56,748 nt of DNA, taken from an uncultured Alphaproteobacteria bacterium. GTDB taxonomy: Bacteria; Pseudomonadota; Alphaproteobacteria; HIMB59; GCA-002718135. The text below is the continuation of a report on this DNA, generated by a model with database tools. The stretch itself is not shown here. The stretch spans positions 1 through 56,748 of the forward strand of contig CACKQA010000001.1 in NCBI GenBank assembly GCA_902602135.1, written 5' to 3'.

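Follow-up and report, generated by a model that had tools for sequence, protein, structure and literature searches.

Predicted operator sites and their probable repressor

It had been proposed in the preliminary description that two palindromes in divergent promoter regions place the genes of this locus under one LacI-family repressor, and both palindromes were confirmed in place together with an additional half-site before the second one (see table). They are beyond chance, as each has one exact match in the 56.7-kb window compared to 0.00 and 0.02 in dinucleotide-preserving shuffles. Looser matches (at most two mismatches) occurred at chance frequency and within genes. The gene calls around the sites also held at the level of Pfam families: on the minus strand a HisD-family gene and a double-SnoaL gene, 2 nt apart, as well as lacI, and on the plus strand a bicupin, a double-SnoaL and a Meth_synt_2 gene, and further SBP_bac_1, two permeases, a HAD-fold protein, an SDR and a third double-SnoaL protein.

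Positions of the main features of the island and its predicted operator regions in the window
Feature	Position	Strand	Description
HisD-like gene	31713-33032	-	G-K-F-P-M enzyme
Sno1	33035-34132	-	double-NTF2/SnoaL-like protein
O2	34163-34209		composite operator, Sno1/bicupin region
O2 half-site	34168-34175		TTATTCAA
O2 palindrome	34180-34194		TTGAATAATATTCAA
Sno2	35206-36180	+	double-NTF2/SnoaL-like protein
lacI start	38315	-	ATG
O1	38332-38367		composite operator, lacI/SBP region
O1 palindrome	38342-38357		TTGAATAATTATTCAA
Sigma-70-like match	38353-38381		TTCAAA-17-TATTAT, SBP operon
Octamer	38361-38368		GTTGCATT
Sno3	43316-44389	+	double-NTF2/SnoaL-like protein
Swept block	33,000-44,500		Sno1 through Sno3

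In the mechanical ORF call lacI starts at a TTG within the palindrome, and the conserved N-terminus of the orthologues points to the ATG listed in the table. With this as the real start, the centre of the palindrome lies about 34 bp upstream of lacI and 66 bp upstream of the start of the solute-binding protein (SBP) gene. At O2 the distances are 35 bp to the bicupin start and 55 bp to the Sno1 start. The two sites share a composite architecture, [ATTCAA or ATGCAA]-N4-[TTGAAT-N3/4-ATTCA(A/T)]-N4-6-[TGAAT or TGCAT], and the centre of the SAR11 palindromes, both at divergent promoters, is AATT in the 16-bp and AAT in the 15-bp site. The right arm of O1 overlaps the sole sigma-70-like match for the SBP operon; apart from this match, the promoter and terminator scan gave fewer matches than shuffles and carried no information in DNA of 30% GC. 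An Rfam scan of the whole window returned no match, hence no riboswitch.

The repressor consists of a DNA-binding domain (PF00356 over residues 9-52, E 4.9e-12) and a sensor domain matched by Peripla_BP_1/3/4 over residues 66-331. LacI-family operators are palindromes of about 14-20 bp near promoters, and a central CG is usual; lac O1 versus Osym gives a precedent for odd versus even spacing, and CytR, which tolerates variable half-site spacing and uses the GTTGCATT octamer, for outer half-sites. The locus resembles LacI/GalR regulons of the RbsR, CytR, PurR and GalR types in having an HTH_LacI repressor with a periplasmic-binding fold divergent from an ABC-transporter operon, 15-16-bp palindromes as predicted operators over promoters, and likely autoregulation. 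Unlike in those regulons, the SAR11 operators have AT-only centres and an extra half-site on each side, making a composite of 36-47 bp, and the SAR11 repressor falls under the cut-off of every named NCBIfam LacI subfamily (the best, RbsR NF047341, scored 187 bits against 382). As no LacI-type C-terminal tetramerisation segment was seen in the 332-aa protein, looping between the sites, 4.2 kb apart, is not proposed.

Conservation of the sites and of the gene cluster

When one genome per species was scanned, LacI orthologues (68-100% identity) were found in 58 loci. These come mostly from single-cell or metagenome-assembled genomes titled uncultured Alphaproteobacteria, with one titled Pelagibacteraceae and two carrying other binning labels, and from synteny and sequence identity they are probably all Pelagibacterales. 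The position of the island is the same in all 58, between the HisD-like gene and EamA-pta-aminotransferase-ald. The conservation of the palindromes, suggested earlier as a check, was complete: a 16-bp site is present in 58/58 lacI/SBP spacers and the 15-bp site in 51/51 bicupin/Sno1 spacers. When spacers that are not identical are aligned, the sites and their immediate flanks are at least 95% conserved and the remainder drifts or cannot be aligned.

Most loci belong to variant B, an alternative form of the island with two extra divergent NTF2 genes between lacI and the metE-like gene. The spacer of this extra pair holds a third operator copy, ATTTCAA-AGCA-ATGAAATTTTATTCAA-AAAAA-TGAATA, and variant B has a further conserved palindrome, TGTGAATTTCACA, in the region of the operator sites. 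The LacI of variant B is about 74% identical overall to that of the window type (variant A), and the visible N-terminal DNA-binding region is the same save one conservative K/R change. Two related loci, L061 and L062, have the transporter and the enzymes and lack lacI; their bicupin/Sno1 spacer is only about 50 bp and the motif is absent. No other good operator sites were found in about 1.1 Mb of related sequence.

The cluster itself, for which conservation in other marine alphaproteobacteria had been named as a check, was found by tblastn against plasmids and chromids in Ruegeria conchae, other Ruegeria and Marinovum algicola (pMaD9), and further in Octadecabacter arcticus (pOA238_160, IS6-flanked), a seawater Rhizobium and Ensifer adhaerens. 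In these taxa the set combines an ABC importer (ATPase, SBP and two permeases) and LacI with an SDR, a cupin, a hisD-like gene, several genes of the 'ester cyclase'/NTF2 type and, except in Ensifer, a MetE-like gene; an alpha/beta hydrolase and an RraA-family protein are additional members. The HisD-family gene of Octadecabacter was counted without reading its motif. Partial versions lie on a Vibrio pelagius plasmid (transporter and four NTF2 genes, beside sarcosine oxidase and purU) and on a Halobellus limi plasmid (ABC system, five NTF2 genes and a MetE-like gene), where a beta-hydroxyacid dehydrogenase and AldA stand in place of the HisD-like enzyme. Two Firmicutes loci, L059 and L060, were suggestive and were set aside because their LacI (26-32% identical) is too distant for transfer of function; in L059, a Eubacteriales MAG, a double-SnoaL gene shares an operon with KduI/IolB, a Zn-ADH and a 2-hydroxyacid dehydrogenase.

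The repressors of SAR11, Ruegeria and Marinovum have one and the same recognition helix, VSQSAVSR. In the other taxa, LacI-type sites in the same 16-bp frame were read where the ABC operon and an NTF2 gene diverge: TTGCATTCGCATGCAA and TGCATGCGTATGCA in Ruegeria, TTGCAAACGTATGCAA in Marinovum and Rhizobium, TGAATACGAATGCA in Vibrio, and in Ensifer TTGAATACGTATGCAA, which combines TTGAATA, a half of the SAR11 type, with TATGCAA, a half of the roseobacter type. The classic central CG of LacI/GalR regulons is present in the orthologous clusters outside SAR11. The SAR11 operator is read here as an AT-rich derivative of an ancestral CG-centred site, with the outer ATGCAA/TTGCAT hexamers of the window site representing the ancestral half-site type, and the regulon as older than SAR11.

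That the palindromes are chance symmetry of AT-rich DNA, or sites of a protein other than the adjacent LacI, is hardly tenable: the DNA is 30% GC, loose patterns match at chance level, an AT centre is atypical of the family and the TGTGAATTTCACA palindrome of variant B shows that other factors may act in the region, but the exact sites are not expected by chance, they occur in every LacI-bearing locus and are missing from the LacI-less ones, one of them lies upstream of lacI itself, and orthologous regulators with the same helix adjoin the same frame with CG centres, and Ensifer has the hybrid site. Comparison therefore gives good support to reading the sites as predicted operators of the adjacent LacI, and likewise to the claim that one repressor controls the regulon. 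In the absence of inducer, a dimeric repressor bound to both composite operators would block all four promoters, including that of lacI. Induction would release them, and the division into transcription units is likewise a prediction.

Recent spread of the island

The version of the island seen in the window occurs in ten genomes, among which the block from Sno1 through Sno3 has 99.2-100% nucleotide identity. The flanks of the block, the HisD-like gene included, are 90-98% identical, and the content of the left flank differs in three genomes. In variant B the island has the same location and flanks, but its cassette proteins are only 40-92% identical to those of the window. Base composition is uniform across the island with no break at its edges, which suggests that the donor was another AT-rich, SAR11-like genome. 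A sweep through otherwise diverged genomes argues for strong current selection on the island.

The importer

The transporter is of the CUT1 importer type. Such systems combine an SBP_bac_1 binding protein and two MalF/MalG-type permeases with a MalK/UgpC-type ATPase, and the binding protein and both permeases are encoded here. No ABC ATPase was found among the scanned window ORFs, which cover only part of those in 1-23.7 kb. In L061, L062 and the other taxa the ATPase gene adjoins the importer. Two SBP lineages, about 40% identical to each other, occur with the same enzyme set in different taxa, lineage A in the window, Marinovum, Ensifer and Vibrio, and lineage B in SAR11 variant B, L061, L062, Ruegeria and Rhizobium. 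SAR11_0769, the only sugar SBP characterised from SAR11 (for glucose, PDB 8HQQ), was considered as a relative and is absent among the PDB relatives of the SBP. One parallel in layout is the SmoF-type locus for sulfoquinovose (SQ) and SQ-glycerol in Agrobacterium, which also combines a CUT1 SBP, two permeases and a regulator for a polar head-group metabolite of algae or plants. SmoF is one of the nearest solved SBPs, yet remote (E 1e-9), and the island differs from that locus in its enzyme set and in having no sulfoquinovosidase, monooxygenase or flavin reductase.

The enzymes

The HisD-like protein is closest to HpsN, the DHPS-3-dehydrogenase that oxidises the sulfonated polyol DHPS: in the PDB it scored 399 bits with HpsN 8v35 and 361 bits with 8wwe, compared to at most 259 bits with true HisD, and it is 47.5% identical to CpHpsN. 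[quoted passage not shown] The window protein departs from it, with G-K-F-P-M where 8v35 has GRYAH and 8wwe GRYSH. It differs from HisD too, as that enzyme has a G-S-A-P-L-type motif, GDY (with Tyr following the Zn-binding Asp) and a his-operon context against GKFPM and GDK here. The score with the NCBIfam HisD equivalog NF010343 was 256 against a cut-off of 647; the domain model TIGR00069 was passed, as it was by the 73%-identical Ruegeria orthologue with G-K-F-P-M. The HisD fold, the Zn ligands (Gln248, His251, Asp352, His411*) and the catalytic Glu318/His319 are kept, with GQAEHG, GDK, SEH and EGxxGH aligning with CpHpsN. Lys353, a sulfonate contact in HpsN, is kept as well (GDKVIG aligns with GDKTSG). 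With the Zn ligands, the Glu-His pair and the Lys353 equivalent retained, an anionic neighbour of the oxidised CH(OH)-CH2OH end remains likely.

Orthologues in Ruegeria, Rhizobium and Ensifer are 72-75% identical to the window protein, making it the best conserved protein of the cluster, and EGFVGHAEQ and a 17-residue stretch are common to the Ruegeria and Marinovum proteins. Among representatives at 50% identity, GK(F/Y)P(M/L) is found in the full-length proteins nearest to it, and the GR(Y/F)xH proteins fall in other clusters. An exact-sequence look-up of the HisD-like protein found no record. A second paralogue of 428 aa with GRYNN, 55% identical to CpHpsN, occurs in the LacI-less loci and in four LacI-bearing SAR11 loci, where it follows Sno1 in the position of the HisD-like gene. 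HpsN activity would be NAD-dependent conversion of R-DHPS into R-sulfolactate, with a Km in the low-mM range or better; the one SAR11 'HpsN' with assay data, PU1002_02401, which may be either paralogue, had a Km of about 106 mM for R-DHPS (PMC11131964).

The MetE-like protein has 375 aa and only the Meth_synt_2 domain. Its Zn ligands His-x-Cys, Glu and Cys are kept (MHICWGNY, LIESSN and TDCGFS align with 1ypx, 1u1h and 3rpd), and so is the homocysteine site, where HVGSLPR aligns with TIGSFPQ, SDGE with VHGE, and QLDCPD was read by eye as an IDEPA-type motif. In E. coli MetE the Zn ligands are residues 641, 643, 665 and 726, and Ser433, Glu484 and Asp599 bind homocysteine (PMC7857596). No gene for Meth_synt_1, DUF1852 or a corrinoid protein was found among the annotated window genes or the clusters. 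The protein is similar to the core methionine synthases MesA-MesD (Price et al. 2021, PMC7857596), which are also single MetE catalytic domains of about 375 aa with the Zn and homocysteine residues kept and with no N-terminal folate-binding domain, implying a methyl donor other than folate. Unlike MesA-MesD, it has no MesX/DUF1852 partner or corrinoid protein and is encoded in a catabolic, transporter-linked and LacI-controlled cluster instead of a biosynthetic context, and the solved MesD, 3RPD, matches it weakly (26 bits, E 3.7e-5). The catabolic substrate itself would supply the enzyme with its methyl (or alkyl) group.

Two Pfam SnoaL/SnoaL_2 stretches were found in each of the three Sno proteins, and the AF2 model of Sno1 (pLDDT 89.6) has two NTF2 cones, with Lsd19, MonBI-MonBII and polyketide cyclases as the nearest Foldseek structures. 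The polyether epoxide hydrolases Lsd19 and MonBI-MonBII share the tandem alpha+beta-cone domains and are the best structural matches. In contrast to them and to the SnoaL/AknH/ChaU 'ester cyclases', with which identity is 10-19%, the genes here lie in a catabolic context with an importer and not in a PKS cluster. There are also three to six paralogues per island cluster, and the conserved residues of Sno1, rich in His, Arg, Asp and Glu, suit a polar and probably anionic substrate. The bicupin has an invariant HxHxxxE in the N-terminal barrel only, and its structural neighbours are bicupins of the oxalate decarboxylase and quercetinase types, not sugar isomerases. PDB sequence searches with Sno1 and the bicupin gave marginal matches only, and the neighbours by fold are generic NTF2 and bicupin proteins, which narrow the chemistry and name no reaction. 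The HAD-fold protein has a good fold match and, in the window and all orthologues read, FGSIGT against the phosphatase motif FDxDGT. With this motif missing and no kinase in the regulon, phosphorylated intermediates are unlikely. The nearest models of the SDR are glucose-1-DH, KduD and gluconate-5-DH.

Candidate substrates

The earlier suggestion of a possibly sulfonated substrate rested on sulfoacetaldehyde genes on both sides of the island. The genes are as described, with Xsc above its equivalog cut-off, a PTA_PTB-family phosphotransacylase, an AptA-type aminotransferase and Ald, but their link to the substrate has weakened. The flanks further contain CysQ, a sulfatase similar to PehA and a GMC enzyme similar to choline dehydrogenase. 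We gave up reading the substrate from the SAR11 flanks (xsc, pta, CysQ, sulfatase), since none of the inspected clusters of other taxa shares them. Degradation of DHPS or of another sulfonated polyol or sugar (SQ, sulfoquinovosyl glycerol), in which the HisD-like enzyme would act as HpsN or sulfolactaldehyde dehydrogenase and the product would pass to Xsc-Pta, is unlikely as we see it, and is kept at this level because of the retained lysine, the HpsN-like second paralogue in the slot of four SAR11 loci and beside the LacI-less modules, and the replacement in Halobellus, which belongs to the sulfolactaldehyde-reductase/threonate-dehydrogenase family and comes with AldA. That HpsN enzymes are the best characterised relatives of the HisD-like protein, that Xsc, Pta, an omega-aminotransferase and Ald surround the island, and that the SBP has a remote relative in SmoF, which binds sulfoquinovosyl glycerol, point the same way. 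However, G-K-F-P-M replaces the HpsN-defining motif with its His126, and the clusters of Ruegeria, Marinovum, Rhizobium and Ensifer have the same form and adjoin no sulfonate genes. Neither a desulfonating enzyme nor a sulfoquinovosidase nor an exporter of sulfite is encoded in the regulon. The HisD-like gene, xsc and pta lie outside the swept cassette, and the profile of nucleotide identity sets the island apart from its flanks. No cluster inspected in another taxon lies amid sulfonate genes; in Octadecabacter a TauD-family dioxygenase and an Ldh-family oxidoreductase follow past an IS6 element, and in Halobellus a PhnD/SsuA-family ABC system is about 2 kb from the cluster.

The DHPS clusters hpsRNOUP-suyAB of Cupriavidus pinatubonensis and hpsKLMNOP of Ruegeria pomeroyi resemble the island in having a four-electron dehydrogenase of HisD fold and Zn/NAD type and in being a regulated locus for uptake plus oxidation, in SAR11 near xsc and pta. 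They differ from it in HpsO/HpsP, SuyAB and the HpsK TRAP or HpsU MFS transporter, which the island lacks, and in having no counterpart of the three to six NTF2 proteins, the bicupin and the MetE-like partner. Neither hpsO/hpsP, a DHPS transporter nor sulfolactate-degrading genes were found in the regulon or among the scanned window genes, only xsc and pta being near. In Ruegeria pomeroyi and SAR11, the systems for DHPS uptake that have been characterised to date use TRAP-type binding proteins (PMC13335735), which also speaks against a sulfonated substrate.

By chemical logic, the most coherent substrate class is a carbocycle bearing methoxy and hydroxymethyl groups, such as a mycosporine-like amino acid or (4-deoxy)gadusol, doubtful as this choice is. 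The NTF2 enzymes would take off amino-acid arms or open the ring, the MetE-like enzyme would move the enol-ether methyl to homocysteine, the bicupin would use O2 to cleave the reductone so formed, and oxidation of C(OH)-CH2OH to the acid by the HisD-like enzyme would give a product like 4-carboxy-4-hydroxy-2-oxoadipate for the RraA-type aldolase of the roseobacter and rhizobial clusters. Such a scheme makes use of the Zn and homocysteine sites of a MetE-like protein with no folate domain, of a bicupin akin to quercetinase and oxalate decarboxylase types, and of NTF2 proteins akin to polyketide cyclases and epoxide hydrolases. It is also consistent with the RraA-family protein and PcaD-like hydrolase in the Ruegeria, Marinovum, Octadecabacter, Rhizobium and Ensifer clusters, with the sarcosine-oxidase-type oxidase of N-substituted glycines adjoining the Vibrio version, and with the carriers, which are SAR11 of the sunlit ocean, roseobacters, haloarchaea of salterns and a soil rhizobium. 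However, the RraA-like protein is weak against the CHA aldolase model (29 bits) and absent from SAR11, and a CUT1 'sugar' transporter with a LacI regulator is not a known route for such compounds. A literature search on mycosporine/deoxygadusol in SAR11/Roseobacter found no paper on bacterial genes for mycosporine or gadusol catabolism. We regard such a carbocycle as distinctly improbable.

An ordinary pathway for a sugar, polyol or sugar acid (e.g., glycosylglycerol/glycerate or uronate-type), with the NTF2, bicupin and MetE-like proteins in auxiliary jobs of the isomerase type, also has little probability in our view. It would suit the regulator, whose nearest models are RbsR/CytR, the CUT1 transporter, whose nearest solved SBP relatives bind sugars, and the nearest models of the SDR. 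The distant Eubacteriales LacI relative beside a double-SnoaL gene in a KduI/IolB operon would fit too, as would L061, which has a nearby GH63-like gene of the mannosylglycerate-hydrolase type and a second CUT1 system. Against these stand the lack of any kinase, glycoside hydrolase, aldolase, dehydratase or isomerase of a known sugar pathway in the regulon or in its roseobacter and rhizobial versions, the missing phosphatase aspartates of the HAD-fold protein, the structural neighbours of the bicupin, and the homocysteine-binding MetE-like enzyme, to which known sugar pathways give no role.

An N-methylated, betaine-type compound resembling a polyol, such as the glyceryl head group of a betaine lipid, is very unlikely. 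The MetE-like enzyme, with its homocysteine and Zn sites kept, would then serve as a betaine-homocysteine methyltransferase, and oxidation of the glycerol end would fall to the HisD-like enzyme, the X-CH2-CH(OH)-CH2OH skeleton being a target of HpsN-like chemistry. Glyceryl head groups are recognised by some CUT1 systems, for example UgpB and SmoF. In Vibrio pelagius the cluster lies beside sarcosine oxidase alpha-beta-gamma-delta and purU, and demethylation genes adjoin the Marinovum cluster, but both adjacencies may be coincidence. Moreover, four to six NTF2 proteins and the bicupin would be left with no role, and the kept Lys353 equivalent suggests an anionic instead of a cationic neighbour. 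The homarine operon homABCDER was discarded as a parallel, as its paper (PMC13236597) mentions no SnoaL, cupin, histidinol dehydrogenase or methionine synthase. No substrate class is given a higher probability than the sulfonates.

Implications

The preliminary description knew of no pathway with this enzyme combination, and full-text searches of the literature for the gene combination or the candidate substrates likewise turned up no such cluster. As a kind of system, a LacI-controlled catabolic island is ordinary and its metabolic function is an undescribed pathway; what is out of the ordinary is the set of enzymes and its range from SAR11 to haloarchaea, together with the composite operators of AT-only centre and the sweep. 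Tentatively, and with little confidence, we propose that a major metabolite of algae or cyanobacteria is broken down by a pathway that has not been described before and is abundant worldwide. In it, a folate-independent MetE-like enzyme would move the methyl group of the substrate directly to homocysteine to give methionine, double-NTF2 proteins and the bicupin would break down the skeleton, and the G-K-F-P-M enzyme, as a new branch of the HisD/HpsN family, would oxidise the hydroxymethyl end.

SAR11 are the most abundant heterotrophs of the surface ocean, and the list of compounds they consume is short and hard-won. The island provides at least 58 species-level SAR11 genomes with a dedicated importer of the high-affinity type, a dedicated repressor and about nine enzymes, and relatives in a protein collection of public genomes and metagenomes (90% clustering) number 2557 for Sno1 and 1411 for the bicupin. 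The culturable carriers Ruegeria conchae, Marinovum algicola DG898, Octadecabacter arcticus 238, Ensifer adhaerens and the marine Rhizobium, which carry the cluster with one type of operator, as read in Ruegeria, Marinovum, Ensifer and Rhizobium, make the question of the substrate genetically tractable. By homology the HisD-family gene of the island would count as hpsN, although the defining residue of HpsN is missing from its product, and this calls for caution in sulfur-cycle studies. If the proposed pathway is true, the SAR11 'hpsN' reads that have been used to infer oceanic DHPS turnover would partly belong to another pathway.

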